Source: Tautonia marina (lineage in GTDB: Bacteria; Planctomycetota; Planctomycetia; Isosphaerales; Isosphaeraceae). From it: DNA of 32,000 nt. Both the position numbers and the translations under genes were made by a program. The DNA lies in contig NZ_WEZF01000031.1 in assembly GCF_009177065.1 (NCBI RefSeq), forward strand, positions 13,637-45,636, given 5' to 3'. Under the pieces are notes generated by a model, which saw only the letters and a list, made by a program, of their open reading frames with translations, did not search any database and had not been told where the DNA came from. Shown piece by piece: positions 8,001 through 23,200 of the stretch (positions are counted from its first letter, which is position 1; the number at the start of each line of letters is the position of its first letter).

Positions 8001-8012
8001 GGAGCAACGAGC

Positions 8013-8600: not shown

Positions 8601-8605
8601 TTCCC

Positions 8606-9277
8606 ATGAAACCATTCGACAACTACGAAATCTCCGGCTGCCAGCGCCTCGATGATGCTGGCACACCCGACCCGTATGGCAGCATCACCGTCACCTGCGA
8701 CGACGATGAGGCGGAATTCTGGACGCTCTACGGCCATGTCCAGGGCGAGCGCGTGGAAGCCCTCGGCGATTACTCCAGCCGCGAAGCGGCGGAAGAGGTG
8801 TACCAGTGCATCACCGGCCAGCCGTTCCCAAACCTCTATGAATGCGACCCACATATCCGCCGCATGCACCTTGCCGCCGAAGCGTTCGCGTTGCTGGAGC
8901 GTGCCGCCAGCGAACTCGAAATCTGGCAGCTCGGCTGCGGGCCGGAAGGCGATCCTGACACGCAGGCGATTCTCAGCGATGTACGGGCACTCTTCGCCAT
9001 GGCCGACGGCACCGGCGAAGCGGTGCCGCCATCGCCGCGGGAAATCGCGGTCAGCTGGGCTATCGAGGATGTGCAGGAAATCCGCCCGGATTTGAGCGAC
9101 GCTCAGGCGTGCCAGGTCCTGCAATGGGCGAAGCACCATCACGACGCGACCATCGGAATCAACCGGGAGGTGCTCGCCTGCCATGCCGAGCATCTCTTCG
9201 GCGATGCCCCGGCGGCGAACGGCGGAGCAGCGCCCGCATCCATCAACCTGAACACCATGGAGGAAACACAACCATGA
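8606..9277 (+). CDS. hypothetical acidic protein (223 aa)
   Basis: AAGGAG lies upstream, 5 nt after the previous stop. The product is MKPFDNYEISGCQRLDDAGTPDPYGSITVTCDDDEAEFWTLYGH.. Confidence 0.6.
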   Translation: MKPFDNYEISGCQRLDDAGTPDPYGSITVTCDDDEAEFWTLYGHVQGERVEALGDYSSREAAEEVYQCITGQPFPNLYECDPHIRRMHLAAEAFALLERAASELEIWQLGCGPEGDPDTQAILSDVRALFAMADGTGEAVPPSPREIAVSWAIEDVQEIRPDLSDAQACQVLQWAKHHHDATIGINREVLACHAEHLFGDAPAANGGAAPASINLNTMEETQP

Positions 9278-9474
9278 CCCAGCAATTTACCTACGAAATC
9301 ATGCTGAACGTGGAACGCGAAGGCTTGCTGACCATTCCCATCGCTGGTTTCCGCGTGCAGGGATGGCTCGACACCGACCGCGACTTCGCCGAACAACTTG
9401 AAGAGCGTATCGCGGAACATTTGAGGCGGATCGTACCGAAGCTGGAGAAGGCGCGGCCAGTTGCCCGGGAATAA
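9274..9474 (+). CDS. small hypothetical protein (66 aa)
   Basis: An internal ATG of ORF 9109-9474 overlaps the previous stop as ATGA (9274-9277). GGAGGA lies upstream. The product is MTQQFTYEIMLNVEREGLLTIPIAGFRVQGWLDTDRDF.. Confidence 0.5.
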   Translation: MTQQFTYEIMLNVEREGLLTIPIAGFRVQGWLDTDRDFAEQLEERIAEHLRRIVPKLEKARPVARE

Positions 9475-9489
9475 AGGCTCTCCGGAATC

Positions 9490-9984
9490 TCAGCCGTCTG
9501 CCTTCCGGAAGGTGATGCTCCGGATGACCGTGGCCGCATCGTCTTCCGCCGGCTGATTCGCCGGTTGCTCCCATACCCAGTAAATCGCCATCCGGCCGAG
9601 GGCCGCGCAGAGCGGAATAAGGTTCCGGCCCTCGATGACGGCTTCCGTCACTTCGCTGCCGCTGAACCGCACGATGAGCTTCGGGCCTGAGCCCGGCCGC
9701 TCGCCCTCGGCCATCCAGACCCGCTCCAGGCCGTGATAGAGGAAGCCGACCGGCAGCATGTTCTTCGGCAGGAAGAACAGGCAGGCCACCGGGCGGCTGG
9801 AAAGCCGCGAATACGCCCGGTAGGGATCGCCCGCCACCGGCAGCGGCGGATGGTCGTCGTTAACCGCCGGTGCCGCCTCCGGCGCTACCGGCTCCGGCCT
9901 TTCGGGCTCAGAGCGTGCCGCACCAGCTTTGCGGTCGATCATGTCGAGGATGCTGAATTTCTCTGCCATCCGCTCATCGGCCAT
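9490..9984 (-). CDS. hypothetical protein (164 aa) translationally coupled to the relaxase gene
   Basis: ATG at 9984 overlaps the relaxase 3' end (stop 9974-9976) by 11 nt. Composition is protein-like (..LFFLPKNMLPVGFLYHGLERVWMAEG..). No family recognised. Confidence 0.5.
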   Translation of the reverse strand: MADERMAEKFSILDMIDRKAGAARSEPERPEPVAPEAAPAVNDDHPPLPVAGDPYRAYSRLSSRPVACLFFLPKNMLPVGFLYHGLERVWMAEGERPGSGPKLIVRFSGSEVTEAVIEGRNLIPLCAALGRMAIYWVWEQPANQPAEDDAATVIRSITFRKADG

Positions 9985-12889
9985 GGCCGTGCTCCTGTTG
10001 CTGTGATCTCAGACGTTCGGCGTGCGTGAATCCTTCCGGCCGGTAGCCGCCCACAGGCGAACGGTCTGCCGGCGAAGCTTCCGTGCCGTTGCGGGAAAAC
10101 GCCCGGCTCCATGCCGCACGCATGGTGTCGAACAGGCGGAGCTTCCGCCTGCGGGCCAGATGCCGCTGCCGCCGCTCCTGCTCCTCCCTTGCCGGATCGG
10201 GCTTCGCCGCCGGCATCAAATCGAGGGCGAGCCGCTTCAGGCTCGATTTCTGGATACGCTCGCGCACCGCCTCCTTATCGTCGGTAAAGAGCGAAAGCTG
10301 CTGCTTCGCCCTGGTCGCGCTCACATACATCTGCTCCATGCTGGTCGCCGGCAGCGACATGGACGACATGCCGAGAATCACCCGCTTCACGGTGCGCCCT
10401 TGCGAGCCCATCGAGGTTTCGACGTAGCCGTGCCGCAGATGGCCGGCATCCCGGCTCACTTTCCAGCCGTTTTCAAGGACGATGTTGCCTTTGCGGTCGA
10501 ACCCGCTTACCACCTGCGTATCGCCGTTTTTGAGCCGGTGTTTGCCGTCCAGGCTCTTTACCGTGCCCGTAAACCGCACGACATCGCCGGTGCTTAAGGA
10601 AAGCGTCTCCGGCCGGTAGAGGCTGAACCGCTCCGCCTGTGACACCGGCACCGAGTTCGGATCGGTAACAACGAGCCGCTCGCCTTTACGGAAGCCTTTC
10701 GCGTTCTGGTGGAACTGAATCACATCGCCGGGCCGGTAGGTGCTGCTTTCCGAGCGTTCGGCCAGCGAGGTCATCACCGGCATCAGCCGAAGAACTTCCC
10801 GCTCTTCGGAGCCGAGCCGGCCCTTTTCCCGAAGCCGGCTGCGGATTTCGGCGGTCATCAGGTTTGCTTCCGCGTGGGTCGGCGCAACGGCGAGCACGCG
10901 GGCCTGCGGCGGCAGGTGTTCGAATTCTTCTGCAGCGGCCACGTATTCCTCTGCCATGCGCTGCACCCGCTCTTCGCCGTTTGCCATCTCATGCACCCAG
11001 CCGAGCCGGTCGAGCGCATCAAAGCCCTCCGCCGCCTTGCCCTCGTAGAGCAGCCCGGCCGCTTCCCGGTATTCCGGGCTTTCCTGACGGAGAATCTCCG
11101 TCAGCCGGAAGGGCCGGATATGCCCGTAGTCCTTCAGCAGCCGCATGAAGGCACCGCGGCCGATGGAGCCGTGTTGGCGCGGATCGCCAACAACGATGAG
11201 CTTCAGGTTCTGCCGCTTCACCACCTCCATCAGCTTCACGGCATCGGCGTGCGAGAGCATCGAGCTTTCATCGACGACGACGCGGCCGTTCTGTGCTGCC
11301 GCCTGCATCTTTTCGTCGAGCAGGAAGCGGGCGAGCGTGTCGGCTTCGAAGCCTTCCTGATTCAGCACCTTCACCGAGGTAGCCGTGGTGCCGAGCCAGG
11401 TGACGGCCTGGCCCTGAAGCGCTGCCCCTTCCGCAAATTTCTTCAGCAGCGACGATTTCCCGGCACCGGCCGGCCCCTCGATCAGGTTGACGCGGTTTTC
11501 GCTTGTAAGCAGGCCGGTCACCGCTTCCCACTGGCCGCGGTTCAGGTACTCGCGCTCAAGCCCCCCGGATACGCCAATCGGGGCCACCGCTCCCCTGCCG
11601 GCCATGGCCCAATCTGCCATTCCCCGCTCTTCGGCGAGCAGCTCTGGCGTGGTCGCCACCCGCTCGCCATCGCGCTCCACGAGGATGACGCCCTGCCGCT
11701 TCAGCTCCCGTTCGATGTCTTCCGGCGACGCCGCGCCTAAGCTCCGCTCCAGCGCCGTCGTCATCAGCGTCTCCGGCGGCAGGGTCGATTCCTGCTCGAA
11801 ATGGTGCCGCATCGCAAACGCCACCGCCCGCTCAGGCGTGTTTTCCGGGCGGCCGTTCTCGCCACGCATCGCCCGTTTGATGGTCTCGGCGATGGCCCGA
11901 CGCTCAGCCCCGGTTTGCCGGCTCCGCCAGTATTCGCGGCACTCTTCGAGCGTCAAATCATCACGCTTGGTCTGTCGCGAGGTTGCGGCGAGCCGGTCGC
12001 GGGCCACGGTGCTTAAGGAGTCCGGAGCGGTCGCATCCAGCTCCCTGTTCTCAGCGACGATGGCCGCTTCCGTCGCGTCGATATCCCGCGTGCGGCGGGA
12101 CGATTTCTCAAGCGCCGACTGCCAGTCCGGTTCGAACGACGGAGCCGGCCGGATGTCCCACGAGTAATAGCGGCTGCCGCCCTGTTCGCTGTTTTGCCAC
12201 TTCGTCTCAATCTCGTAGCCGAGGCCGCTCAGCTTCTTCGCAAGAATCGCATCGAAGCTCCGGTCGAAGAATTTCCGCAAATCCATCAGCGGCCGGAATT
12301 TCACCGCCTTCCAGCGGCCTTCGGCATCGTCGAAGGTCAGGTTGAGCACGACGCCGTGGATATGCCGGTCTTCATCCGGCATCACCCGCCATGGATGGTC
12401 TTCCGGCAGCGATTCATCGACAGTGGGGCGGGTTTCGGCATGCTCGACGGCGTAGGCCACCAGATTGCCGGTAATGCGGTCCTCGTGCTTTCCATCCACG
12501 CGCACCCGGGTTGTTGCGTATCCCTCCAGCATGGCGAGCGCCTCGCGGAAGGATTCCCATAAGGCTTCGTGCACGCGCACATCGCCGCCCTCGATGGCGT
12601 GCGTCACGCCTTTGGGCACGCTCGCGGTCACATCCCAGGCCGGGATACGGTTGTCGCGCAGACGGGCGGTAAGCTGCTCGCCCGTGAACGGGTCGAGCCC
12701 GTGCAGCATGTTGCGGAACTGGTCGAATTCCGGCGGGCCTTCAAGCCCGAGCATCGCGGCACCGCGGCCGGCCCATTCGGCGTGCAGGCCATGCTCGCCA
12801 TGGTAGTAGCCGCCGTCGCTCCGGGCGTAGTACAGCTCCGCCCGGCGTGCCGCCTCTTTACCCGTTCCGACCGGCTTCATTCGCAACAT
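9974..12889 (-). CDS. MOBF-family conjugative relaxase-helicase (TrwC/TraI-like)
   Basis: The N-terminus AELYYARSDGGYYHGEHGLHAEWAGRGAAMLGLEG is the typical TrwC-type relaxase opening. A histidine triad region ..DRHIHGVVLN.. is present. The P-loop helicase half has LIEGPAGAGKSSLL and VVVDESSM. The start is uncertain: ATG 12889 is chosen, but the ORF is open to TTG 12946 and there are other ATGs at 12925 and 12880. Confidence 0.85.
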   Translation of the reverse strand: MLRMKPVGTGKEAARRAELYYARSDGGYYHGEHGLHAEWAGRGAAMLGLEGPPEFDQFRNMLHGLDPFTGEQLTARLRDNRIPAWDVTASVPKGVTHAIEGGDVRVHEALWESFREALAMLEGYATTRVRVDGKHEDRITGNLVAYAVEHAETRPTVDESLPEDHPWRVMPDEDRHIHGVVLNLTFDDAEGRWKAVKFRPLMDLRKFFDRSFDAILAKKLSGLGYEIETKWQNSEQGGSRYYSWDIRPAPSFEPDWQSALEKSSRRTRDIDATEAAIVAENRELDATAPDSLSTVARDRLAATSRQTKRDDLTLEECREYWRSRQTGAERRAIAETIKRAMRGENGRPENTPERAVAFAMRHHFEQESTLPPETLMTTALERSLGAASPEDIERELKRQGVILVERDGERVATTPELLAEERGMADWAMAGRGAVAPIGVSGGLEREYLNRGQWEAVTGLLTSENRVNLIEGPAGAGKSSLLKKFAEGAALQGQAVTWLGTTATSVKVLNQEGFEADTLARFLLDEKMQAAAQNGRVVVDESSMLSHADAVKLMEVVKRQNLKLIVVGDPRQHGSIGRGAFMRLLKDYGHIRPFRLTEILRQESPEYREAAGLLYEGKAAEGFDALDRLGWVHEMANGEERVQRMAEEYVAAAEEFEHLPPQARVLAVAPTHAEANLMTAEIRSRLREKGRLGSEEREVLRLMPVMTSLAERSESSTYRPGDVIQFHQNAKGFRKGERLVVTDPNSVPVSQAERFSLYRPETLSLSTGDVVRFTGTVKSLDGKHRLKNGDTQVVSGFDRKGNIVLENGWKVSRDAGHLRHGYVETSMGSQGRTVKRVILGMSSMSLPATSMEQMYVSATRAKQQLSLFTDDKEAVRERIQKSSLKRLALDLMPAAKPDPAREEQERRQRHLARRRKLRLFDTMRAAWSRAFSRNGTEASPADRSPVGGYRPEGFTHAERLRSQQQEHGHGR

Positions 12890-12954
12890 GGGCGATGCCC
12901 CCGCCTTTACCAAATCCAGGGGCATCCTAACGGCGAAAACCACCAAATCAAGCA

Positions 12955-13150: not shown

Positions 13151-13187
13151 ATTGACCGGCCCTGAATACCGGAGTATCGCTTTAGGC

Positions 13188-13703
13188 ATGTTCGACGCAG
13201 CCAACGACAACGAAGACGAAGAAACCGGGCCTTCCCGGGCGCAGCCGCCGCTTTACGTGCTCCGCGTCCCGGAAACCTGCCCGAACTGCGGCTCCGCCAC
13301 CGGCGTCTGCACGCTCGCCGCTTCCGGCCTCTACGACGCCAGCGACGGCGATTTCTTCGACCGCTTCATCGTGCTCACCCATGCCGCGGAAGTGCCGGAG
13401 CAGCTGCTCGCGCTGCTGCGGGCCCGCTTCCCAAACTGGTATCCGGACCGCGAGGAGGGAAGCGGCACCGCCTATCTGATGAATCACTGCGAATGCGGCA
13501 GCCGGCTCACGGACGATGACATCCACGCCGAGCCCGGCGCGGCCTTTCACCCGACCAGCCCCGACGCATGCCGGAACATCTCGCTGTATCGCCTGCCCAT
13601 CGGCGAGGAGCTGCCGCTCGTCTGCAGCTGGACCATCGGCGTCGGCGAATGGCTCGACCCGGCCAGGGCGGCCGACTGGCAGGCAGGCGATGCAGGAGCT
13701 TGA
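13188..13703 (+). CDS. hypothetical protein with split zinc-ribbon-like cysteines (CPNC .. CEC)
   Basis: ATG 13188 lies within ORF 13152-13703, which opens with TTG. The product is MFDAANDNEDEETGPSRAQPPLYVLRVPETCPNCGSATGVC...MNHCECGSRL.. No family recognised. Confidence 0.45.
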   Translation: MFDAANDNEDEETGPSRAQPPLYVLRVPETCPNCGSATGVCTLAASGLYDASDGDFFDRFIVLTHAAEVPEQLLALLRARFPNWYPDREEGSGTAYLMNHCECGSRLTDDDIHAEPGAAFHPTSPDACRNISLYRLPIGEELPLVCSWTIGVGEWLDPARAADWQAGDAGA

Positions 13704-13952: not shown

Positions 13953-14459
13953 TTAGTCAACTACCTTAATGCCCTTTGGCCGCTTGATTTCTTCAGGTAG
14001 GTGATCCGCCGGAAGCACACGCTGATAGGAGCCAGTAGTCTGCACCATGACGCGCTGGCCTTTCTCCAGTACCTTGTCTTCGGAGTTTAGATTCTGGGCT
14101 ACCGTCATCGCTTTGCCCTGCTCAGTCACTACTGTGTACTCAATTCCCTTCGAGTCGGCCGCCGCTTGTTCTGCCGCTGCACCAATGATTGCCCCTGCAA
14201 GCGCTCCACCGGCAGCTGCCCAAATCTGCCCGCTGCCGTCACCAACGTAGGCACCGGCCCCACCTCCGGCTAGCGCACCTGCGGTAGCTCCTGCCCCGGT
14301 GTTGCGACCGGTGATATCGATTTCCCGAACATCGACGATGGTGCCGAAATCGACCAGCACCGACTGGCCAACCTCGTTATATCGGTACTGATTTTGACCC
14401 TGCTGCTTGGCACATCCGGCCAGTGAAATGGCAACCAAAAGTACTACAACGTAACGCAT
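13953..14459 (-). CDS. SlyB/PCP-like outer-membrane glycine-zipper lipoprotein
   Basis: Lipobox LVAISLAG|C. The architecture matches E. coli SlyB as I recall it: ..DFGTIVDVREIDITG.., then glycine zippers GAGATAGALAGGGAGAYVG and AAGGALAGAIIGAAA, then a beta-rich tail (GIEYTVV..GQRVMVQ). G+C appears by eye to be lower than the backbone (not hand-counted). Confidence 0.7.
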   Translation of the reverse strand: MRYVVVLLVAISLAGCAKQQGQNQYRYNEVGQSVLVDFGTIVDVREIDITGRNTGAGATAGALAGGGAGAYVGDGSGQIWAAAGGALAGAIIGAAAEQAAADSKGIEYTVVTEQGKAMTVAQNLNSEDKVLEKGQRVMVQTTGSYQRVLPADHLPEEIKRPKGIKVVD

Positions 14460-14468
14460 AATAAATCC

Positions 14469-15011
14469 TTACCTAATATCTGCTTCTGTTTTTCGGGCCA
14501 GCGACTGTGCGATATGGGCAATGTTTTCACCGAAAGCACCACCGGCTGCCTCATATATCACCATCGTCGAGTTCGCACCAAAGAGGGGATATTCCGACGT
14601 ATGCGGTACAACCACAAGCTCACGATAGACCGGATCGCCGGACTTCGCTTCGACCAGCGTATATTCCACGGCACAGCCTGTTTCGCAGCTTCCGAACATA
14701 CAGCTTGGCATCTGAAAATCTTTGATGTCACTCAGGAGATGATACTCAGCATCGCTGGCATTCTGGTTTAGTAGGCCCGCTGCGTTGAACCCACGCTGCA
14801 AGGCAAATGGGAGATTGTTGAAAAACGGGTCGTCTTCCTGCCATTCGAGGCTTCGGATCACGTCTCCTATCGCAAGTTTTCCTTTGAGATAATAATTTCC
14901 GTCAACCTGTTTGAAGGATTGCTCCCTCGGTTCCATCATATGAGCAGGGATGGGGTTATTAGTACAGGCCGCCAGGGCAAGCAAACAGAGGGGAATCAGT
15001 TTTTTCAGCAT
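14469..15011 (-). CDS. hypothetical lipoprotein (180 aa)
   Basis: Signal peptide plus lipobox MLKKLIPLCLLALAA|CTNN. It lies 9 nt upstream of the SlyB-like gene on the same strand. GGGAGA lies upstream of the ATG. Confidence 0.65.
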   Translation of the reverse strand: MLKKLIPLCLLALAACTNNPIPAHMMEPREQSFKQVDGNYYLKGKLAIGDVIRSLEWQEDDPFFNNLPFALQRGFNAAGLLNQNASDAEYHLLSDIKDFQMPSCMFGSCETGCAVEYTLVEAKSGDPVYRELVVVPHTSEYPLFGANSTMVIYEAAGGAFGENIAHIAQSLARKTEADIR

Positions 15012-15038
15012 CGCGTTCTCCCGACTTACATCCCGCCT

Positions 15039-15067
15039 AAGCTACATGCACTACTATTTATTGGCAA
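15039..15067 (-). promoter_or_regulatory. possible sigma70-type promoter for the lipoprotein pair
   Basis: The minus strand reads TTGCCA (15067-15062), a 17-nt spacer, then TAGCTT (15044-15039). It lies ~28 nt upstream of ATG 15011. Pattern match only. Confidence 0.25.
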
Positions 15068-15085
15068 CTTTTAATATTTCGGATT

Positions 15086-15613
15086 TCATCGACTAAGTTT
15101 CGACGTTCGAGCTGCCTGGCCGCAATGCGGCAGCATCCCGCAGGGCCGGCACTGCGCAGGCTTCGGAAATACCCTGGCTGGCGTAGCCAGATCCTGCCGT
15201 ATGGCCCTGATCTGCTCGGCCATGCCAAGTACCTGAGCCCGAAGTGCCTCCGTGTTCTCGATGCGGCATCGCGTGCCGTCGCCAAGGACGATGAAGCCGT
15301 GCGACGGCCGGCGGCCGAGCCGGTCCTCGATGAGCAGGAAATACACGCCCATCTGAGCCCTGTGCCAGGGCCGAAGCGTTCGGGCGGATTTCCATTCCTC
15401 GGGGATGACGCTATCGCCCTGCCGGACAATCCGGTCGGGCCGGCCGGTGAGCCCGAGCCGCTTCGAAGTGAGCGTCACCTGGTCGAGCGAAACCGTGCGG
15501 CCTGCCTCAAGCCCGGCTTTCTGCCGCAGCCCTCTGCCGGCCCGCACCAGCAGAAGCCCAATACCGAGCAGGCAGAGGGCAAGCAGAAGCCCGAGCCAGA
15601 GGGGAAAGCTCAT
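15086..15613 (-). CDS. membrane-anchored Cas4/RecB-like PD-(D/E)XK nuclease, C-terminal piece (catalytic core + CX2CX5C)
   Basis: N-terminal TM helix (SFPLWLGLLLALCLLGIGLLLV). Then GLTGRPDRIV..VIPEEWKS (D..ExK), QMGVYFLLIE (QxxxY), and a C-terminal CRPCGMLPHC cysteine cluster. ATG 15613 overlaps the upstream stop as ATGA. A GTG at 15619 is also possible. Confidence 0.7.
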   Translation of the reverse strand: MSFPLWLGLLLALCLLGIGLLLVRAGRGLRQKAGLEAGRTVSLDQVTLTSKRLGLTGRPDRIVRQGDSVIPEEWKSARTLRPWHRAQMGVYFLLIEDRLGRRPSHGFIVLGDGTRCRIENTEALRAQVLGMAEQIRAIRQDLATPARVFPKPAQCRPCGMLPHCGQAARTSKLSR

Positions 15614-15867
15614 CGCCACAATGTCCAGAGCAGCACCAGGGCCGCCAGCAGCAGGGCACAGCCAGCCAGCACCCAGCCCAGGCCGATCGACGAGCCGGCG
15701 ACCGCCTCGACGGCGGCCTTCCGCTTATGGTACCGGGTTCCGGCCTGCATCTCCCGCCGGTTCGCCGGCGGAAGCCTCAGGCCCTCTTGCAGACGCCATT
15801 GCTCCGGGCAGTAGGCGAAGCTGGCGATTTCATGGGCAGAGATTAATTCTGTCACAACTTCCGCCAC
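15610..15867 (-). CDS. small membrane protein carrying the Cas4-type N-terminal cysteine motif (N-terminal piece of a split Cas4-like nuclease)
   Basis: GTG start, 3 nt after the PIN-like stop. ISAHEIASFAYCPEQWRL..MQAGTRYH resembles the Cas4/DUF83 N-terminus (first Fe-S cysteine plus the G..H motif). A TM helix follows (IGLGWVLAGCALLLAALVLLWTLW). Confidence 0.55.
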   Translation of the reverse strand: MAEVVTELISAHEIASFAYCPEQWRLQEGLRLPPANRREMQAGTRYHKRKAAVEAVAGSSIGLGWVLAGCALLLAALVLLWTLWR

Positions 15868-15870
15868 TGT

Positions 15871-16905
15871 TTAAGTGTAAAGCTCATCCCATTCATCACC
15901 CAAAATCCAGCGAATTGCGGAGAGCTTTCCATTTATCATTCCCCATTCAAAATTATCCCAAGGACCGAGGTTTTCCAATCCGTATTTCGCTTCCAATTTT
16001 CGAGCTGACTCCAATGCCCCTTCCCAAATATCACGTTGAATCGGCCGCTCTTTACCAGCGATTGAAGGGAATGTTTCTCTTTCAACAAGTTCAATTTCAC
16101 CTGATTCTATTTTTTCTCGACGAACCATATGACGATTATACCAGACTTTATCGCATAGCTCGCCCTCGGCTTCGATTAGCTCAGAAAGCGATCGTTGCGG
16201 CTGCTCCCACTCGCCCAGTTCCGCCATTAGCTCAGAAACTAGATCAGGCCGCACCATACGCAATGCGTCGCCAATGTTAATAAAGTAATTTGAATTTCTC
16301 TTGGAAAAGAATTCCGCGATGTCAGGGTGAGCTTCATTGTTGTTGACTGATGTATTACTAAAATCGTTGTGATTGTTGGTCACAAAGGCAAATCGATGCC
16401 CAGCCGACTCCTGCCCTTGAACGCATTCACCATAGATTTCGATGATAACGGCATCGCCGGTGCTGTTCTTTTTGCCGTGGAATGGAGCTTTGACCTGCAA
16501 CGCTCGGTCAATAACACGAGACTTCACCGGCTCGCTTACTTCTAAAATGGCCGCAGTTTTGAATAGTTTTTCAATTCTCGTCATCGATTCGGCGACGGCA
16601 TCCCCTAGCGTCGGAAGCCGGTGGTCAATGTCGTTGAGTTGCTCCAGCACCTCTCTCTTTGAGCTTGCATCGCCGTACTTGTCCACAGCGTCTTTCACCC
16701 GCTTGAACACGCTGGAGAGGCTTTTCCGGCTGTCATCGATGATCCGCTGGCGGTTTCTCTGAAATTCATCGATGACAACGGCAGGCAGAAGGATTCCGAC
16801 TTCTTGCCGTTTCACAAGCTCCTCCAGAACGCTCAGCAATAGCTGTTGCTGAGGCTCCTTCGCCATGTTCAGCCAGACATCAGTATCTGCCATGATTTTG
16901 AACAT
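15871..16905 (-). CDS. PIN-like domain protein (344 aa) with uncharacterised C-terminal half
   Basis: ATG 16905 lies 2 nt after the MmeI-like stop. The longer ORF to 17007 would overlap that gene. The spacing of acidic and polar residues fits a PIN-like fold: IMADTDVWLN .. VVIDEFQRN .. STGDAVIIEIY .. FAFVTNNHNDF. G+C is low (line 16081-16140 hand count 19/60). Confidence 0.6.
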   Translation of the reverse strand: MFKIMADTDVWLNMAKEPQQQLLLSVLEELVKRQEVGILLPAVVIDEFQRNRQRIIDDSRKSLSSVFKRVKDAVDKYGDASSKREVLEQLNDIDHRLPTLGDAVAESMTRIEKLFKTAAILEVSEPVKSRVIDRALQVKAPFHGKKNSTGDAVIIEIYGECVQGQESAGHRFAFVTNNHNDFSNTSVNNNEAHPDIAEFFSKRNSNYFINIGDALRMVRPDLVSELMAELGEWEQPQRSLSELIEAEGELCDKVWYNRHMVRREKIESGEIELVERETFPSIAGKERPIQRDIWEGALESARKLEAKYGLENLGPWDNFEWGMINGKLSAIRWILGDEWDELYT

Positions 16906-16907
16906 TA

Positions 16908-19754
16908 TCAGCTCACATTCACGCAGTCTTCGGTGATGAACGCCGCCGCATCCTTGACCGAAGGCGGAAGCCCCGGCCCGACCACCGGCCGCATGCTCTC
17001 CTCGCAATCGGCCAGCTCAGCATTCAGGCTGAGCAGGAAGGCAAGCGGATCGTCCTTGGCTTTCATGCCGTAGGCAGCACGGACAGCGCCATCAAGTTTG
17101 TCTTGTGCTGCTGTCAGCGGGTTACGACCGGGCACGTCGAGGGTCCGATACAGCTCCCGGAGGCTCCAGCCGTTCTCTTCCATAAGGCGGCTCCGAAGCT
17201 GGCGCAGTGCGACGGAAGCAGCGGCCACCTGCTTTACCTGCGTGAGCGAGGGGGATTGGGGCCATGGGAATGTATCAAATACGGTATCCGAAGTGTATCG
17301 GAAATCGCCCTTCAGCGTAGAACACCGGGCAACAAACCACGCCCAATGGATGTTCGACTGAAGAATTCCGAATGAATAATCGTCCGCCAGAGAAAACACC
17401 TGCAAGGCATCGTTCGGGTGTATCCTCGCGTCGATGAATGAAAATATCGGACGCTTGGTCACCCTGGCGCACCCTATGTAACGCGGAAGAGTCGCCAGGC
17501 GATCAATCATCTCGGGGCGGCCTCTCCAGTATTTCCACCAACGCTGATAATGGTTTTGTCGCGGCCCTTTATCTTTGCCTGTCGCCTCCCGCTCTTTCTC
17601 GGCATTCTCTTTCATAGTCGGCATGACGTATGTTCTGACGTGCTCAAACGCTTTGCCATGCTTCATTGCGCCAATCAGGTCATCGCAATGGTTAAGATCG
17701 ATGGCATAGCGGGAGGGTGCCCCATGCGTCAGAAGATCATCGCCAGTCAGGTAAGGATGGATGACATTCTTCGAGGCAGGGTCTTTCGTTAGCTCCTTCG
17801 CTGCTTCCTCCGTCAGCAGGAACCCTTCGTTTCCGTGCGTCTGCCCCTGATAACATGCTCCGGAGTCAATGTTGGCTTGCAGCCTTTCAGCCTGCGTTAC
17901 ATCATGCGACGCGGAAAGAGCCGGTCCAATCCGGTCAACCTCGACCACTTCCCACGGGCTGTCTCTGTTATCGCCAATCTGCGTAAAGAGCTTCTTTTTC
18001 CCCTCAGCATCGCCCTTCACCCAATTTGCTATGGACACATGAACGACAGCATCGCCCGACCATACCTGACTTGAGACAGCCTCAGTAATCGTTCCGCCAT
18101 GGCCGACGATGTAATCGAGCCCCCCCTCTCGCGAATAGTTTTGCCGGATGGTATTGGTGCCGACCAGGCCGGCGTGCCCGCCCTTCGGCAGCTCGTCATG
18201 CGCCCGGCGAAACCAATAGACGCAGTAATCTGCCCGGCCCGGCACCTCAGGATAACGATCGCGCACCTTTTCTACATATTCGTGGCCGTACTCCTGCTGC
18301 ATTTTGTTTTTCGACTGATAGGGCGGATTCCCGACGATGGCCTGGGCTTTCGGCCATTTGCAGAACAGTGCGTCCTCGCAGATGATGTTTGCGTCGAGGT
18401 TGTCGAGCGGCAGGGCCGCATCGAATTCGATCGGCAGGTCGAGCTGTTCAGAGTCGATCCACGAACGGCTTTCGTCGATGGCCAGCTCCTTGGCGAGCAT
18501 AAGCGTCACCTTGGCCAGCTCGACGCCGAAGGCGTCTTTCTCGATGCCGAAGAATTGCTTTGTACTCACCTGCGTGCGGGTGCCCACCGCCTGCTGAGCC
18601 CGGCGGCCGAACTCGGCATGAATCTTCGCCATCAGGCTCAGTTCCAGCCGAATCAGCTCCCGGTAGGCGACGTAGAGGAAATTTCCGCTGCCGCAGGCCG
18701 GATCGAGCACCCGGAAATCCCGCAGCTCTTCGAGTAGCTGCCGCAGGTCCTTCAGCGTCTTCGTGCTCTCGATGCGCTCCCGCCACGGCCGCACGATAGT
18801 CGGCAGCACAACCTTCTGGATGTCGGCTTCCGAGGTGAAATGCGCCCCGAAGGCGTGCCGGGCCTGCTTGTCCATGCTGCTCTGGAACAGCGTGCCGAAG
18901 ATGGGCGGCTGCACTTTGCTCCAGTTTTCTTCAGCCGCCGACTGGAGCAGGGTGATTTCGTCGTTCACCAGCTCGACCGGCTCGACCACCTGAAAGATGC
19001 CGCCGTTGAAGTAGCGGACGTTTTTGAACTTGCCGCCCCGGGCCGGCTCAGGGTTGTTCATCTGCCGGAACAGGCCCCCGATCAGGTCGTAGCTGCTCTC
19101 GCCGCCGAAGCAGTCGGCGAGCAGCTCGCTGAAGAGCCCGCGTGGCAGAAGCTCGGCATCCTCCGAGAACATGGCGACCACGCATTGCAGGGCGAAGCGC
19201 TGGGCCCGCGCCCGCGCCTCGCCACGGCCGACCATCGAGTTAAAGACGCGTGCCACCTTGTCAGCGGCCGCCCGCGTGACATCGACGCGGTTGTTGCCGA
19301 ATTGCGGCTTCCGGTCCTCGGGAAACAGGAAGTTGAGCGCCGTGTAGCGGTGCGGCAGCTCTTCGAGGGCAATCCGGTCTACCGGGTCGTTGAGCTGGGA
19401 ATCGAAATCGTAGATCCAGAATTCGTCGAAGTTGCAGAGGATGACGTAGCGGGGCCGCTGGGGCACCAGCTCCAGCCAGTATTCGAACGCCTGCGTGTAG
19501 TGCTGCTGGAGCTTCTCGCCGCGTTTCTTCATCTCCATCAGCAGCCGCGGCCGCCAGAGCAGGTCGGCGAATTTCGTGCTCTTGCCCCGGGCCTTGACGC
19601 GGAATTCGAGGGTGGCTCCGGCTTCCTTGTATCCGCCGTGTCCGAACGCCTGAAACAGCCGGTCGCAGAAGACCTGGGCCTCGCCTTTCTCATCGCCCCT
19701 CAGGGTGCGGGCATAATCGACGAAGGTGCGAATCGGCTCGACGGTCGTGCTCAT
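16908..19754 (-). CDS. MmeI-family type IIL restriction-modification enzyme (nuclease + gamma-class N6-adenine MTase + TRD in one chain)
   Basis: Collinear with MmeI as I recall it. N-terminal nuclease motif FADLLWRPRLLMEMKKRG (D..ExK). Also RYVILCNFDEFWIY, IFGTLFQSSMD, GAHFTSEADI, SAM motif VLDPACGSGNFL, FFGIEKDAFGVELAKV, catalytic IVGNPPYQ, LVGTNTIRQ, and YTSDTVFDTFPWP near the C-terminus. Confidence 0.85.
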   Translation of the reverse strand: MSTTVEPIRTFVDYARTLRGDEKGEAQVFCDRLFQAFGHGGYKEAGATLEFRVKARGKSTKFADLLWRPRLLMEMKKRGEKLQQHYTQAFEYWLELVPQRPRYVILCNFDEFWIYDFDSQLNDPVDRIALEELPHRYTALNFLFPEDRKPQFGNNRVDVTRAAADKVARVFNSMVGRGEARARAQRFALQCVVAMFSEDAELLPRGLFSELLADCFGGESSYDLIGGLFRQMNNPEPARGGKFKNVRYFNGGIFQVVEPVELVNDEITLLQSAAEENWSKVQPPIFGTLFQSSMDKQARHAFGAHFTSEADIQKVVLPTIVRPWRERIESTKTLKDLRQLLEELRDFRVLDPACGSGNFLYVAYRELIRLELSLMAKIHAEFGRRAQQAVGTRTQVSTKQFFGIEKDAFGVELAKVTLMLAKELAIDESRSWIDSEQLDLPIEFDAALPLDNLDANIICEDALFCKWPKAQAIVGNPPYQSKNKMQQEYGHEYVEKVRDRYPEVPGRADYCVYWFRRAHDELPKGGHAGLVGTNTIRQNYSREGGLDYIVGHGGTITEAVSSQVWSGDAVVHVSIANWVKGDAEGKKKLFTQIGDNRDSPWEVVEVDRIGPALSASHDVTQAERLQANIDSGACYQGQTHGNEGFLLTEEAAKELTKDPASKNVIHPYLTGDDLLTHGAPSRYAIDLNHCDDLIGAMKHGKAFEHVRTYVMPTMKENAEKEREATGKDKGPRQNHYQRWWKYWRGRPEMIDRLATLPRYIGCARVTKRPIFSFIDARIHPNDALQVFSLADDYSFGILQSNIHWAWFVARCSTLKGDFRYTSDTVFDTFPWPQSPSLTQVKQVAAASVALRQLRSRLMEENGWSLRELYRTLDVPGRNPLTAAQDKLDGAVRAAYGMKAKDDPLAFLLSLNAELADCEESMRPVVGPGLPPSVKDAAAFITEDCVNVS

Positions 19755-20017
19755 GGGCGGTATCGGTTCAGGCTAACGGGCATAGAATTCATCGCGGCAG
19801 CGTACAAAGCAGGCCCGGGGTTCGCTGCCAAACCCCTGAGCAGACAGGATTTGCGATGATACCGCCGGATTCTCCCGCGGTCAAACCATGCGTGGATCGT
19901 AAGCCACAATGCCTGCCCTCCGGGATTCTCCCGGCATGAGCCTGCATCGTAACTCCGGCAGTATTGGCAATTTAGACCGGCTGTGTTAATCTGAAGGCAG
20001 GTTAGAGGACCATTGCC

Positions 20018-20338
20018 ATGAATGTTCATATTACTGAAAACTCGGAAAACATCATCCGCTCCAAAGTGCAGAGCGGCCGCTATTCGTCCGCCGAGGAGGT
20101 GATCGAGCGAGCCTTGCGGCTGCTTGAGGAGCAGGACAAGGCATCATCGCCTGAGAGCGGAGCACCGCTCACGGAAGACCAGAAGGCCAGCCTCGATGCC
20201 CAGCGCCGCCTGAAGGAAGCAGGATTGCTGAGCGAAATCCGGCTCCCCATTACCGATCTCACGCCCTACGCCAGCCGGAGAGCCGTCCCCATCCAGGGCG
20301 AGCCCCTCTCCGAAACCGTCATCCGCGAGCGCCGCTGA
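20018..20338 (+). CDS. type II antitoxin (ParD/RHH-like N-terminus) paired with VapC
   Basis: MNVHITENSENIIRSKVQSGRYSSAEEVIERALRLLEE resembles the ParD-family antitoxin N-terminus. The C-terminal ..PIQGEPLSETVIRERR tail is typical of antitoxins upstream of PIN toxins. The stop lies 1 nt before the toxin GTG. Confidence 0.7.
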   Translation: MNVHITENSENIIRSKVQSGRYSSAEEVIERALRLLEEQDKASSPESGAPLTEDQKASLDAQRRLKEAGLLSEIRLPITDLTPYASRRAVPIQGEPLSETVIRERR

Positions 20339-20339
20339 C

Positions 20340-20789
20340 GTGGCTTTCTACTTTCTGGACACCAGTGCTCTGGTCAAACGATACGTTCAGGAAACAGGAA
20401 CTGCATGGTTGCAGTCATTTTGCCAGCCTGCGGCAGGCCATACGCTGTTTCTGGCCCGCATCACGCTCGCTGAGATGGTCGCCGCGATCACGCGACGGGA
20501 ACGGGGCGGAAGCATCGCCCCTGCGGATGCCGCTATGGCTCTGGCTGATTTCCAGCTCGACTTCGCCCGGCAATACCTGCCAATGGAAATCACCGCCGCC
20601 CTGATCGTGCAGGCCGCACAGCTTGCCCGAACCCATGGCCTGCGCGGCTACGACGCCGTACAGCTGGCGGCTGCCCTCGAGGTTCACGCCCGAGTGCCGA
20701 CGCTTACGCTAATCTCTGCCGATCAGGAACTCAACGCAGCCGCCACCGCATCAGGCATGTCTGTGGATGACCCGACCATGTATCCCTGA
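20340..20789 (+). CDS. vapC: PIN-domain toxin, VapC family
   Basis: GTG start. (M)AFYFLDTSALVKRYVQE.. carries the first acidic residue. Also ..ITLAEMVAAI.., ..LRGYDAVQLAAAL.., ..LISADQELNAAA.. The spacing is typical of a 149-aa VapC. Confidence 0.8.
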   Translation: MAFYFLDTSALVKRYVQETGTAWLQSFCQPAAGHTLFLARITLAEMVAAITRRERGGSIAPADAAMALADFQLDFARQYLPMEITAALIVQAAQLARTHGLRGYDAVQLAAALEVHARVPTLTLISADQELNAAATASGMSVDDPTMYP

Positions 20790-20795: not shown

Positions 20796-21287
20796 CTACT
20801 TCCCCGCGGCCTTCGCGGCTGCTTCAACCCATCCACCAAAGCCCAGGAAGCCATTGTCGGCAACCCACCGATACGTCGGAAATAATTGCGACATAGGAAC
20901 AAGAATGCTTCCCTGCTTGACCTTGATGTGATCGAAGGGATTCTGGCCTTGGTAATCTGTGCGGCCGTCCTGACCCTTAATTTCATGAACGTAGATACCG
21001 AACAGGCCGTTTCCACGTTCGTAGCTCTTCTCGATCTCGTACTTTACCCAGGGCCGTTGCCATGTCTCATAGCCAATGAGAACGGCGGTGACGGAAGTAC
21101 CAACGAGCCCGTCGTCGATCATCCTTTTGATAGCCGTATCGCCTTTCTTTTTGGCCTCCTCCCAGAGCGACCTGTCCCAATAGCCTCGGTTCTCGATGTC
21201 GGCTTTCGACTTACCGTGGTTCCGGACGATACTGGCACGCCAGATGTCACGGTCGTAGTGAAAGCTGAAGAATACTTTTCTGGCCAT
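20796..21287 (-). CDS. thsB: Thoeris ThsB, TIR-like (DUF1863-type) protein
   Basis: MARKVFFSFHYDRDIWRASIVRNH..SLWEEAKKKGDTAIKRMIDDGL..TSVTAVLIGYETWQRPWVKYEIEKS..YRWVADNGF aligns along its length with Bacillus cereus MSX-D12 ThsB as I recall it. AGGAGG lies upstream. It is immediately downstream of thsA. Confidence 0.85.
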   Translation of the reverse strand: MARKVFFSFHYDRDIWRASIVRNHGKSKADIENRGYWDRSLWEEAKKKGDTAIKRMIDDGLVGTSVTAVLIGYETWQRPWVKYEIEKSYERGNGLFGIYVHEIKGQDGRTDYQGQNPFDHIKVKQGSILVPMSQLFPTYRWVADNGFLGFGGWVEAAAKAAGK

Positions 21288-21316
21288 GAAGGGCCCTCCT
21301 GATGAAGTTCCGGACG

Positions 21317-22759
21317 TTAACGCCTCACCCGTTTGATAATGGCGAAGATAGCTTCAATAATATCATCGTTTGAACTTTTTTCATTACCTAATACTTTGAA
21401 ATTCGTTTTGATGCTGAACCCAGGATAATAGTCGTCGATGTTATCGTTTACGATGTTCCAGATTTCGCGGGACGCATGCCCTGTCGCACCAACGGGAATC
21501 GGATAGACCCCCAACTGCTTTGCAATTTCAAATTCCTGCATCACACCGCCCGCAAGCTCCGGCTTTCCCTCTCCATCCTGCTTGTTACCGCATAGGAAGA
21601 TGGCAAAGCCAGCCTTCGAGAGCATGTCACGCCGGTATTTCTCCCAGAAATCCTGGACTGTCATACCGGCCGGAGCATTTCCTTGTGGGAATGGCCTTAG
21701 CACCAACCGGTCATCAGCGTGAGTCGTGTCGTCCCGATAAACGGCCTCCATGGAACCGACAATGACGAAGCTGCCAATCCCCAATCCAAACCCTGATATA
21801 AGATTATAACCGTTATTTATTATTTCTTCGCCTATTCGACGAGAGAGCTTTTCGATTTCCTCCTGACCGCGTGGCGCATAGTCGAAAGCGCTACCTGAGA
21901 CGAAAATATCGTTCAGATGCACCCGCCGGTTCAGCTCCTTGAGAATGCCGGTAACCTCTGCATACTCATCCACGAGTATCGTTCTGATATTGTACCGGCC
22001 CAGGTCGTCGATTCGAAGCTGCTGCTTTCTTTGAGCGTATTCGTATTCCGCGAGTTGCTTTCCTCTGAGCCCTTTCCTTTTGGGCTCACGACGCATGATG
22101 CAGTAGTGGTCCCTGCCGGTACCGACCAAAACACGAATTCTACTAAGAATGTAATCAATATTAGGGTCAGTGAAACTGAATCCAAGAAACAGGAATGTCT
22201 TCGAAATTAAATCACTTTCAAGAACTTGTGTGAAAGCTTGCCGGGTCACATTGTACAGTTCGTAATCCTCTTTTGTGAGCACGGCGTTGTCAGGCGACGA
22301 TACATCTCCGTGCATTTTGTAGATCATCGCATCAACGCGCCGCTTCAATGGAACGAGGTTTTTTGGGTCGGTTTTAACCTCGACTCGCTTTCTGGCGGCT
22401 TCGTAGGCATTTTCGATAAGCTTATCGTAATTCGTCGTCCAGACCGTGCGGATAGGAAGGTTCGCGATCAGCTTGTGGTTCTCCGTCTGCCGCACATCCT
22501 CAGTGTATTCCTCAACCAGTTTGCGATTCAAAGTCGCACGTGTCCGGCGTTTGTTCAGGTGATATTGAGCAATAGCTATAAGGTCATACTCAATATCGAT
22601 GTCGAGGTGGAGATCGCTCGCAATCTCCCTCATCAACCCTTTCCAATCGACGAAACCGGCCGGCCGCGAGAGCCCTGCTCCGGCGAAAAGCGCAGCAGTT
22701 CCGTCCGTCAGAGACTTCACATAGTTATCATAAAATTCCGGAAGTCCAATTTCAGACAT
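21317..22759 (-). CDS. thsA: Thoeris ThsA, SIR2 (NADase) + SLOG domain protein
   Basis: SIR2 part: ALFAGAGLS..ENHKLIANLPIRTVWTTNYDKLIE..IYKMHGDVSSPDNAVLTKEDYE..FLFLGFSFTDPNIDYILSRIR. SLOG part: IFVSGSA..LISGFGLGIGSFVIVG..DRLVLRPFPQG..YRRDMLSKAGFAIFLCGNK..PIPVGATG. It is collinear with B. cereus ThsA. Confidence 0.9.
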   Translation of the reverse strand: MSEIGLPEFYDNYVKSLTDGTAALFAGAGLSRPAGFVDWKGLMREIASDLHLDIDIEYDLIAIAQYHLNKRRTRATLNRKLVEEYTEDVRQTENHKLIANLPIRTVWTTNYDKLIENAYEAARKRVEVKTDPKNLVPLKRRVDAMIYKMHGDVSSPDNAVLTKEDYELYNVTRQAFTQVLESDLISKTFLFLGFSFTDPNIDYILSRIRVLVGTGRDHYCIMRREPKRKGLRGKQLAEYEYAQRKQQLRIDDLGRYNIRTILVDEYAEVTGILKELNRRVHLNDIFVSGSAFDYAPRGQEEIEKLSRRIGEEIINNGYNLISGFGLGIGSFVIVGSMEAVYRDDTTHADDRLVLRPFPQGNAPAGMTVQDFWEKYRRDMLSKAGFAIFLCGNKQDGEGKPELAGGVMQEFEIAKQLGVYPIPVGATGHASREIWNIVNDNIDDYYPGFSIKTNFKVLGNEKSSNDDIIEAIFAIIKRVRR

Positions 22760-22792: not shown

Positions 22793-23152
22793 TCAGCCAT
22801 AATACCGTGCAATCGAGGATGCCGCCATAAGCGTCTTCTGCAGATTCCAGGAAGCTAGGTCACATTGCTTTACCACCCAACCCTCCGGGTCCACCAGCTC
22901 CCGCAACTCGTATCCGACGCCGATACGCTTCCGGGCGGTACCCCGCCGCCTGAGGCTCTGCCGCACCAGCCTCCGCGCTTCCGCTTCATCCCGGGCCAGA
23001 TAGCGGATGGTGCGCCCCCTCGCCCCGATGCGGCCATAGGTCACGTCAACCAGCCAGGTGCCGAACAAGTCGGTGCCCGCTTCGAGCCGGTAAGCACGGT
23101 AGCGGCCGCGTGCCGGATCGCACGCTTCGAGGGTGGCGGCAAAGACGTTCAT
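22793..23152 (-). CDS. small WGR-domain protein
   Basis: ATG 23152 has GGAGG ~11 nt upstream. The WGR core is RYRAYRLEAGTDLFGTWLVDVTYGRIGARGRTIRYLARDEAEARRLVRQSLRRRGTARKRIGVGYELREL. The C-terminal ~25 aa run into the lower-GC Thoeris islet. Confidence 0.7.
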   Translation of the reverse strand: MNVFAATLEACDPARGRYRAYRLEAGTDLFGTWLVDVTYGRIGARGRTIRYLARDEAEARRLVRQSLRRRGTARKRIGVGYELRELVDPEGWVVKQCDLASWNLQKTLMAASSIARYYG

Positions 23153-23200
23153 GGTCGGGTTCCCTCCCCTGCCCGGCAGCACGGCACCCCCTTCTCCTTT

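Follow-up and report, generated by a model that had tools for sequence, protein, structure and literature searches.

Enzymes of the MmeI family cleave DNA about 20/18 nt from an asymmetric site and methylate one strand only, and the nucleases Cas4, Dna2, MGME1, AddB, and ACE1 process single-stranded DNA (ssDNA) and DNA ends. An N-terminal PD-ExK nuclease and a colinear chain define the endonuclease-proficient set of the MmeI family, the members of which have no consistently flanking genes (Morgan et al. 2009, PMC2731913). Solo-Cas4 genes and Cas4 genes of mobile genetic elements (MGEs) have been surveyed, and solo-Cas4 genes next to restriction-modification (RM) systems were already noted (Hudaiberdiev et al. 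2017, PMC5704561). ACE1, a Cas4-family nuclease, boosts plasmid interference by a self-sufficient prokaryotic Argonaute (pAgo) when the two are co-expressed (PMC12094033). Genes of the DUF4935 (now PIN_12) family, which encode proteins of ~350 aa with a VapC-like PIN domain and an uncharacterized C-terminal region, are usually mono-cistrons (Matelska et al. 2017, PMC5499597). Here, we describe a locus of the planctomycete Tautonia marina (Isosphaeraceae) in which members of these three families lie head to tail on the minus strand. It comprises four open reading frames (ORFs) of 948, 344, 85, and 175 aa, running from position 19754 down to position 15086 of the window, i.e., the whole stretch of 32,000 nt that was analyzed (contig NZ_WEZF01000031.1, positions 13,637 to 45,636).

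The original prediction, which was made from the sequence alone, read this run as a candidate composite defense operon that couples an MmeI-like type IIL enzyme with a PIN-like protein and a two-piece membrane Cas4-like nuclease. On balance, we favor a different reading, in which the four ORFs are three separable modules (i.e., the MmeI-like enzyme, the PIN_12 protein, and the divided Cas4-like pair) stacked among the cargo genes of a small Isosphaeraceae plasmid, probably served by one promoter 5' of the MmeI-like gene.

Modules of the gene run

The 948-aa ORF encodes, in this order, an N-terminal PD-ExK nuclease, a helical spacer, a gamma-class N6-adenine methyltransferase (MTase), a target recognition domain (TRD), and a C-terminal domain. 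The Pfam models MmeI_N (1.3e-25), MmeI_hel (9.6e-13), MmeI_Mtase (1.2e-34), and MmeI_TRD (2.2e-14) all matched above their cutoffs, with a weak match to MmeI_C, and the type IIG model of PADLOC (REase_MTase_IIG) scored 1429 bits. A phmmer comparison aligned the protein end to end with MmeI (5HR4; residues 20-907 against 23-892; E, 9.5e-68) and placed its catalytic triad D64-X9-E74-M-K76 on D70, E80, and K82 of MmeI; the MTase motifs DPACGSGNFL and NPPY are also present. Like MmeI, the protein is a single colinear chain of ~950 aa with a PD-ExK triad, a gamma N6-adenine MTase, and a TRD, and nothing structural separates the two. No separate cognate MTase flanks the gene, the neighbors of which are a toxin-antitoxin (TA) pair, the PIN_12 gene, and the Cas4-like pair. 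Judged by its domains and motifs, the ORF is a complete, endonuclease-proficient type IIL enzyme that is predicted to restrict and methylate unaided, and there appears to be no reason to expect that it needs partners. The domain assignments of the original prediction were borne out for all four ORFs by the Pfam, PADLOC, and TIGR profile searches.

The GC content at third codon positions (GC3) changes within the MmeI-like gene, from ~0.83-0.88 over the first ~1420 nt (nuclease, spacer, and start of the MTase) to ~0.62-0.67 in the remainder, which comprises the rest of the MTase domain, the TRD, and the C terminus. This step suggests that the specificity half of the gene was gained by recombination from a lower-GC source, i.e., that a specificity domain was swapped.

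The 344-aa ORF matched the Pfam PIN_12 model over its whole length (profile positions 1-172 of 172; 95.3 bits versus a gathering cutoff of 32 bits). Only the first ~180 residues of the protein are covered by this match, and the ~160 C-terminal residues have no family match. PADLOC has no model for the protein and returned no match, and an exact look-up retrieved no identical record. The family has 2950 database matches, with relatives encoded in 554 species-representative genomes and a mean column identity of 73% across different phyla over the full length. Residues D7, E47, D151, and D181 do not vary among 21 diverse members, in which the C-terminal region shows the same degree of conservation. 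The AlphaFold2 (AF2) model of the protein (pLDDT 81) contains a VapC-like PIN domain (residues ~1-200) with helical inserts; Foldseek retrieved VapC-type matches for this N-terminal domain only and no structural match for the C-terminal domain. A profile search of PDB sequences returned nothing for PIN_12 or for the Cas4-like family described below, both of which were matched by fold comparison only.

In its size, its conserved acidic PIN residues, its uncharacterized C-terminal region, and its lack of a cognate antitoxin gene, the protein resembles the described DUF4935 proteins (PMC5499597), although the window copy is wedged into an operon with gaps of 2 to 3 nt rather than standing alone. 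Its PIN fold also resembles that of VapC toxins; unlike in VapBC systems, however, there is no conserved small upstream antitoxin gene, and the protein is 2.5 times larger and carries an extra conserved domain. From the VapC-like fold and the defense-island context, we infer a role of the RNase or abortive-infection type. The gene also contains a 29-nt imperfect direct repeat (16159-16238; copies 51 nt apart, encoding the peptides SELMAELGEW and SELIEAEGEL), a small internal duplication at the boundary between the PIN and C-terminal domains.

The GC3 of the PIN_12 gene is 0.51, versus 0.75 for the MmeI-like gene, 0.78 and 0.76 for the two Cas4-like genes (hereinafter Cas4N and Cas4C), and 0.79 for the MobF relaxase gene. 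In two other loci (L164 and L090), the stop codon of an MmeI gene is followed after 3 nt by the start codon of Cas4N, and when the PIN gene of the window was deleted in silico, the 3' end of the MmeI-like gene and the 5' end of Cas4N aligned with these uninterrupted junctions. Since the deletion recreates the L164/L090 junction and the GC3 is foreign, the PIN_12 gene is, by composition and junction geometry, a recent, compositionally foreign single-gene insertion into the 3-nt spacer between the MmeI-like gene and Cas4N. It provides a clean example of a single defense-island gene entering a 3-nt operon spacer.

We surveyed 80 PIN_12 loci with up to ±10 kb each (1.35 Mb in total). Neither MmeI-like nor Cas4-like sequence was found by tblastn around any of these 80 genes, the MmeI-family hidden Markov model (HMM) also matched in none of the 80 loci, and no PIN_12 gene was found in 83 Cas4-like loci elsewhere. 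The 587 nearest neighbors of the 80 genes were spread over 503 clusters, of which the largest covered 4 loci; PIN_12 therefore has no conserved partner or antitoxin, in line with the mono-cistronic DUF4935 genes of PMC5499597. The neighbors that could be named, from many phyla, are a heterogeneous set of defense-island and mobile-element genes, including ResIII, type I restriction endonuclease, HamB, LmuB, QatD, DrmA/D, AbiJ, HipA, and integrases. The nearest relatives of the window protein (80% and 69% identity; L171-173) are encoded next to a Bil-like ubiquitin system, IrrE/helix-turn-helix (HTH) genes, VapBC pairs, and an integrase fragment, without MmeI. In L171 (2087-5057; also in L172), the 80%-identical gene is located beside an IrrE/HTH pair and a Bil-like cluster (Multi_ubiq, ThiF/E1, and BubE). 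A truncated gene 5' of the L171 PIN_12 gene was considered as the C terminus of an MmeI protein and rejected, as it had no Pfam match and the BLASTP alignment (E, 0.004) was limited to 87 aa.

The three junctions within the run (Table 1) proved to be exactly as originally predicted when the sequence was read again. For Cas4C, an in-frame GTG at 15619 is also open, and the 175-aa NCBI product P0001 begins at ATG 15613. The accompanying claim that there is no room for promoters or terminators holds for the intergenic gaps but not beyond them, because sigma70-like sites are located 5' of the MmeI-like gene and, in a second and weaker instance, inside the PIN gene (16280-16253); these calls are matches to the sigma70 consensus only, and planctomycete promoters are poorly defined. 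A scan of the gene run found no terminator-like structure between the four genes. Given this result and the promoter-like site 5' of the MmeI-like gene, it is plausible that the four genes are co-transcribed in T. marina from that one promoter, and the site inside the PIN gene means that transcription may also start internally.

The divided Cas4-like pair and its distribution

The last two ORFs of the run match different portions of Cas4 (Table 1), and the TIGR00372 score of Cas4C (51.9 bits) is below the 65-bit equivalog cutoff. In the window, Cas4N contains FAYCPEQW, which includes the first cluster cysteine (C20), and AGTRYH, followed by a C-terminal transmembrane (TM) helix that ends 6 residues before the stop. 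Cas4C begins with an N-terminal TM helix, followed by a PD-(D/E)XK core (GRPD, EEWK, and QMGVY, corresponding to QxxxY) and then the CxxCx5C cysteines. The helix positions are uniform across the family: Cas4N has 80-92 aa, the signature EIAxFAYCPEQWRL...AGTRHH, and a hydrophobic helix ending 1-7 residues before the C terminus, and the hydrophobic helix of Cas4C begins at residues 1-10. Lys and Arg together number 3.0 ahead of the first helix and 4.6 beyond the second one, versus 1.0 and 0.1 at the short loop ends; as these counts obey the positive-inside rule, both soluble parts are predicted to be cytoplasmic. In effect, the predicted topology is that of a Cas4 gene split in the loop of a TM hairpin, with one helix in each piece.

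The N-terminal cysteine of Cas4N and the GRxD, ExK, and QxxxY motifs of Cas4C were present in all 28 non-redundant pairs, and the C-terminal CxxC...C was present in 25 of the 28. At the level of sequence, the four cysteines of the Cas4-type iron-sulfur (Fe-S) cluster are present but divided, with one in Cas4N and three in Cas4C. The AF2 core of Cas4C has a pLDDT of >90, and the top Foldseek matches were Cas4 (7MI4, 8D3L, and 4IC1), followed by MGME1, the Dna2 nuclease domain, and ACE1.

The division into two genes is itself conserved. Among the 36 loci in which both pieces were located, 35 encode them in different frames with the same offset, nearly always with an ATGA/GTGA overlap, at 34-83% identity to the window; most of the relatives in protein databases are ~168 aa long and start exactly at the start of the window Cas4C. 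This recurrence of frame offset and overlap far exceeds chance, and a local frameshift or pseudogene was rejected because the split is conserved in 35 of the 36 loci. More broadly, the two pieces might represent a frameshifted pseudogene or a sequencing error, or they might be made as one chain through programmed -1 ribosomal frameshifting at the overlap, given that the frames would be joined by a -1 slip on the final sense codon and that a small number of database entries (P0003-P0006) consist of one ORF of 252-259 aa. We regard this explanation as highly improbable, as both pieces are conserved with start codons at the overlap across that range of identity, the rare "fusions" have out-of-frame stretches in the TM region and look like frame-shifted reads, and no slippery heptamer occurs in the junctions, the sequences of which vary.

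No CRISPR-like repeats, Cas1, or Cas2 were found in the window or in the annotated related loci, which places the pair with the solo or MGE Cas4 proteins. It shares with the surveyed solo-Cas4 genes (PMC5704561) a Cas4-family PD-(D/E)XK nuclease with a four-cysteine cluster, encoded outside CRISPR-cas on a mobile element. However, the window enzyme consists of two coupled genes with a TM hairpin, and that survey mentions neither split nor transmembrane forms. Instead of the single soluble polypeptide of the Cas4 family, there are two genes with one TM helix each. ACE1 (PMC12094033) is likewise a Cas4-family nuclease encoded beside a self-sufficient defense nuclease and is a structural neighbor of the Cas4C core; it differs in that it is soluble, consists of one chain, pairs with pAgo as a heterodimer, and trims guides, whereas the window pair is split, membrane-anchored by prediction, and located beside an RM gene. 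The parallel is a functional analogy only. Our literature search found nothing relevant on transmembrane Cas4-like proteins and no description of a split membrane form. The pair thus belongs to what is predicted to be a naturally split, membrane-tethered Fe-S nuclease family, which is widespread and nearly always encoded by two coupled genes. Such a family raises the questions of how the halves assemble, how two chains would share the ligands of one cluster, and what purpose a location at the membrane would serve.

The T. marina contig is 46.3 kb long, and the window includes an RPA replication initiator with iterons, ParA, and a MobF/TrwC relaxase; it is identified as a plasmid by the 22-nt iterons preceding RPA together with ParA and the relaxase. 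The Cas4-like pair lies 1.5-4 kb upstream of a co-oriented MobF/TrwC gene in the window, in Singulisphaera acidiphila pSINAC03, in Paludisphaera borealis PALBO2, and in a metagenomic contig (L106/107). The closest relative of the window plasmid is the 46.0-kb contig of L003, with 97% identity for RPA, 87% for the resolvase, 93% for the WGR protein, and 82% for the Cas4 pair. The interval from the WGR gene to Cas4N contains one VapBC pair in L003 and contains Thoeris, another TA pair, the MmeI-like gene, and PIN_12 in the window; this difference in content marks it as a variable cargo slot. At other loci, the neighbors of the pair are ResIII/endonuclease genes, a YhcG nuclease, a DEAD helicase with HNH, Fic, insertion sequence (IS) elements, integrases, and sometimes ordinary chromosomal genes, and it occurs without MmeI in L001-3, L085, L095, L097, L106, L109, and others. 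The pair is carried by mobile elements, above all by small Isosphaeraceae plasmids.

In each of the first three gene neighborhoods inspected, a PIN-superfamily gene was located directly upstream of the pair, i.e., an NYN gene (L001/L002, 7101-7739), a VapC gene (L003, 7324-7743), or PIN_12 (window). A "PIN + split Cas4" module was considered on this basis and rejected, since the upstream genes in the wider set were ResIII, YhcG, DEAD, Fic, IS110, integrase, or MmeI genes; the PIN-superfamily genes 5' of Cas4N in the first three contexts may be a coincidence. In the Planctomyces sp. SH-PL62 plasmid pPL62-2 (L170, 6843-7342), 76-aa and 100-aa "Dna2/Cas4 domain" genes directly follow an IS701 transposase gene. 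This degenerate pair suggests that the pair decays in some plasmids.

MmeI-family neighbors of the pair and competing explanations

Several observations weigh against treating the MmeI-like gene and the Cas4-like pair as separable. At four further sites, the pair has as its immediate neighbor an MmeI-clade gene that is 70-76% identical to that of the window, and, including the window, five lineages and three arrangements show such a neighbor. The order is MmeI, Cas4N, and Cas4C with a 3-nt gap in L164 and L090; in PALBO2, Cas4N and Cas4C are followed by a 90-nt gap and MmeI; and in T. sociabilis, MmeI converges on the pair with 7 nt between them. In L099, a more distant MmeI-family gene lies ~2 kb from the pair, and in pSINAC03 and L087/89/93 it is bordered by other MmeI-superfamily genes of the N6_Mtase/Eco57I type. 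The MmeI-family HMM matched in 7 of the 26 loci that were retrieved through Cas4C alone, versus 0 of the 80 PIN_12 loci, an imperfect control in that most of those loci are chromosomal and belong to other phyla. This repeated juxtaposition could stem from selection for a functional partnership rather than from a shared hotspot alone. With respect to the rebuilding of a single nuclease from the two halves, the AF2 model of the natural N-C fusion P0005 has a pLDDT of <50 in its N-terminal 80 residues, where few sequences provide coverage, and is uninformative on the docking of the N-terminal piece and the four-cysteine site.

Other results indicate a loose association. From the Cas4 side, an MmeI-clade neighbor was found in 2 of the 26 loci. 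From the MmeI side, we used six homologs, chosen by similarity and contig size and not with Cas4 in mind, and the pair was present beside one of them (L167, from T. sociabilis). It was missing from L165 (81% identity), L174 (80%), L166 (79%), and L176 (74%), and the sixth homolog (P0250) was counted as uncertain, with genes of 85 and 59 aa after a VapC gene that may be a remnant of the pair. The two partners do not co-diverge: identity between the window and L167 is 76% for MmeI and 55% for Cas4C, and that between L164 and L090 is 79% and 88%, respectively. In the Cas4C tree, MmeI-adjacent pairs are scattered and have sisters without MmeI (window/L003 and L167/L109). Because one of the adjacencies is convergent, co-transcription is not a conserved property. 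Moreover, all of the adjacencies come from one family of 30- to 50-kb plasmids with a single cargo region, in which any two cargo genes are close and adjacency is cheap. A shared cargo hotspot 5' of the relaxase accounts for the repeated juxtaposition as well as functional coupling does. The link between MmeI and the pair is facultative, and the two are not co-inherited. Whereas flanking genes are inconsistent in the described MmeI family, the MmeI clade of the window recurs on Isosphaeraceae plasmids as a neighbor of the split Cas4 pair; our literature search returned nothing on MmeI together with Cas4.

Beside the pair in four loci (L167, 1864-5962; L087, ~5450-9600; L089; and L093) is a trio of genes encoding an 84-aa HTH protein, an N6_Mtase/Eco57I-type protein of ~1039 aa, and a 244-aa protein without an assigned function. 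The trio, which adjoins the MmeI-like gene in T. sociabilis (L167), is possibly another RM-like system.

A composite system of all four ORFs, with the PIN-like protein and the membrane Cas4-like nuclease both dedicated to assisting the MmeI-like enzyme, would have represented a new class of RM-based defense. The tight, co-oriented junctions, the one promoter-like site upstream, and the defense-rich surroundings speak for it. However, it is very unlikely given that PIN_12 occurs with neither partner elsewhere (0/80 and 0/83), that its 80%- and 69%-identical relatives are in other contexts, and that it combines a foreign composition and a clean insertion geometry with the absence of a conserved neighbor in its family. 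In the original prediction, a failure of the accessory ORFs to co-localize with MmeI-like genes elsewhere was named among the results that would refute it, and the answer was divided: the PIN_12 gene was never found in such a position in its 80 loci, and the Cas4-like pair was found there in four other places. What endures of the composite operon is the tight, co-oriented packing, the identities of the genes, and the recurrence of MmeI-clade genes by the pair; a conserved four-gene system does not. The cluster is a case of defense-gene stacking with a recent insertion, not one dedicated four-gene system, and it serves as a caution that junctions of 2 to 4 nt alone do not define a system.

If PIN_12 is set aside as a later insertion, the MmeI-like gene and the split Cas4 pair might still constitute a genuine three-gene defense system, a tentative possibility that we consider unlikely. 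The MmeI-like enzyme would cut unmethylated invading DNA, and the tethered Cas4-family exonuclease would resect or degrade the ends or process the fragments, thereby boosting interference, in analogy to RecBCD after restriction and to ACE1 with pAgo. Such a system is consistent with the recurrence of the MmeI-Cas4N-Cas4C order and its 3-nt gap in L164, in L090, and ancestrally in the window; with the adjacency kept in other arrangements in PALBO2 and T. sociabilis; with the MmeI-clade neighbors of at least four scattered Cas4 lineages; and with the other MTase-type enzymes that flank the pair, set against the PIN_12 control (0/80). The solo-Cas4 genes by RM systems (PMC5704561) and the boosting of pAgo by ACE1 (PMC12094033) provide precedents. 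It is opposed by the frequent occurrence of both partners alone (1/6 from the MmeI side and 2/26 from the Cas4 side), by the closest plasmid relative (L003), which has no MmeI, by the variable orientation and the lack of co-divergence, by the restriction of all cases to a single family of small plasmids, in which one cargo region makes adjacency cheap, and by the control, the PIN_12 loci of which are mostly chromosomal and belong to other phyla. The finding that MmeI homologs have no consistent flanking genes (PMC2731913) also argues against it. A more specific proposal, which we hold to be doubtful, is that the split Cas4 is the dedicated second-stage partner of the MmeI-superfamily RM enzymes that methylate one strand and that, tethered at the inner face of the membrane, it degrades or resects the cut DNA upon its entry into the cell; if true, "type IIL + split Cas4" would be a previously unrecognized two-component restriction system on planctomycete plasmids. 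The position of the pair by MmeI-clade and related MTase-nuclease genes makes a Cas4-family restriction accessory a testable idea, parallel to ACE1 and pAgo. The pair may, in contrast, be unrelated to restriction and provide a backbone function in plasmid conjugation or establishment, e.g., as a leading-region gene with early expression in the recipient or as an entry-exclusion nuclease acting on incoming ssDNA, with RM genes merely accumulating in the slot 5' of the relaxase. Its position 5' of the relaxase gene in the window, pSINAC03, PALBO2, and L106/107, its retention between the window and L003 while the neighbors vary, a membrane tether suited to a DNA entry port, and the action of Cas4-family enzymes on ssDNA and DNA ends fit this explanation. 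Nevertheless, the pair is also located in apparently chromosomal, non-conjugative contexts (L001/2, L097, L109, and L124), and it resembles none of the known exclusion or leading-region families, which makes a backbone role rather improbable.

Under the favored reading as three separable modules, the MmeI-like enzyme would methylate its sites on the plasmid and in the host and would cut unmodified incoming DNA unaided. PIN_12 would be a horizontally spreading, stand-alone VapC-like nuclease that rides as a passenger on an existing transcript and acts independently. Translational coupling at the ATGA overlap would supply Cas4N and Cas4C in a fixed ratio, and pairing of the TM helices would keep the two halves joined such that an Fe-S nuclease is rebuilt on the cytoplasmic face of the membrane, with Cas4N contributing the N-terminal helix and the first Fe-S cysteine and Cas4C contributing the catalytic core and the other three cysteines. 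In keeping with the known activities of Cas4-family enzymes, the pair would then act at the membrane, degrading or resecting incoming DNA that is linear or single-stranded, and would thus provide the plasmid with a defense or exclusion function; it may opportunistically add to MmeI restriction without being required for it.

Plasmid context of the window

Table 1. Features of the T. marina window, with the gene run first and the surrounding genes thereafter
Feature	Coordinates	Strand	Evidence or remark
MmeI-family type IIL RM enzyme, 948 aa	16908..19754	-	Pfam, PADLOC, alignment to 5HR4
PIN_12/DUF4935 protein, 344 aa	15871..16905	-	Pfam PIN_12 (PF16289, formerly DUF4935) 7e-27
Cas4N, 85 aa, tail-anchored (predicted)	15610..15867	-	Cas4 profile positions 5-44 (weak match), family alignment, hydropathy
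Cas4C, 175 aa	15086..15613	-	Cas_Cas4 6e-9, PADLOC Cas4 7e-15, TIGR00372 8e-14; Cas4 positions ~32-178
Junction 1	16903..16910	-	MmeI stop TGA 16910-16908, then TA, then PIN_12 ATG 16905-16903; upstream edge of PIN_12 insertion
Junction 2	15865..15873	-	PIN_12 stop TAA 15873-15871, then ACA, then Cas4N GTG 15867-15865; downstream edge of PIN_12 insertion
Junction 3	15610..15613	-	ATGA overlap of Cas4N stop TGA 15612-15610 and Cas4C start ATG 15613; translational-coupling signature, family-wide
Candidate promoter for the whole gene run	19856..19884	-	best sigma70-like match of the region, TTGACC-17-TATCAT, 10/12, ~100 nt 5' of MmeI-like start
MobF/TrwC relaxase (context)	9974..12946	-	co-oriented; Cas4 pair ~2 kb upstream, likewise in pSINAC03, PALBO2, and L106
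WGR-domain gene (context)	22793..23182	-	other edge of variable cargo slot; 93% identical to L003 WGR
Type I Thoeris (ThsA SIR2-STALD, ThsB TIR)	20796-22759		
Ribbon-helix-helix (RHH) antitoxin/PIN toxin pair	20018-20789		
HTH-Dam methyltransferase	4885-5793		only other MTase in window, 11 kb from MmeI-like gene

The type I Thoeris system and the RHH-antitoxin/PIN toxin pair (Table 1) agree with the defense-dense surroundings that had been described for the run. A megablast search of window positions 15000-20000 against the PLSDB plasmids returned no match, and the relatives discussed above were reached by protein-mode searches. Four tandem TACCGTAATCTGAGGGTGG-like repeats with ~22-nt spacing (29274-29398) are located just 5' of the RPA gene (29556-31028), which is followed by ParA (31131-31973); the repeats are likely an iteron-type plasmid origin.

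Between Cas4C and the relaxase gene are two putative lipoprotein genes (13953-15011 and 13152-13703; GC3 0.54-0.56), one of them with a glycine-zipper match, which look compositionally foreign, as do PIN_12 and Thoeris. The 183-aa ORF at 13152-13703, on the opposite strand, has a 42%-identical counterpart at the same position, between the Cas4 pair and the relaxase, in L106. A 24-nt motif, GGCAAAnnnTCTGCCGGTTT, occurs as two pairs (4844-4911 and 28805-28872), with 44 nt within a pair and 24 kb between the pairs; one pair overlaps the start of the HTH-Dam gene, and the pairs are possibly operators for the HTH-Dam protein. A SNF2/ResIII helicase-like protein of 1234 aa, encoded at 31-3735, has partial PADLOC matches to DrmD, BrxH, and PbeA, and its gene may be a further defense-type gene of the plasmid.

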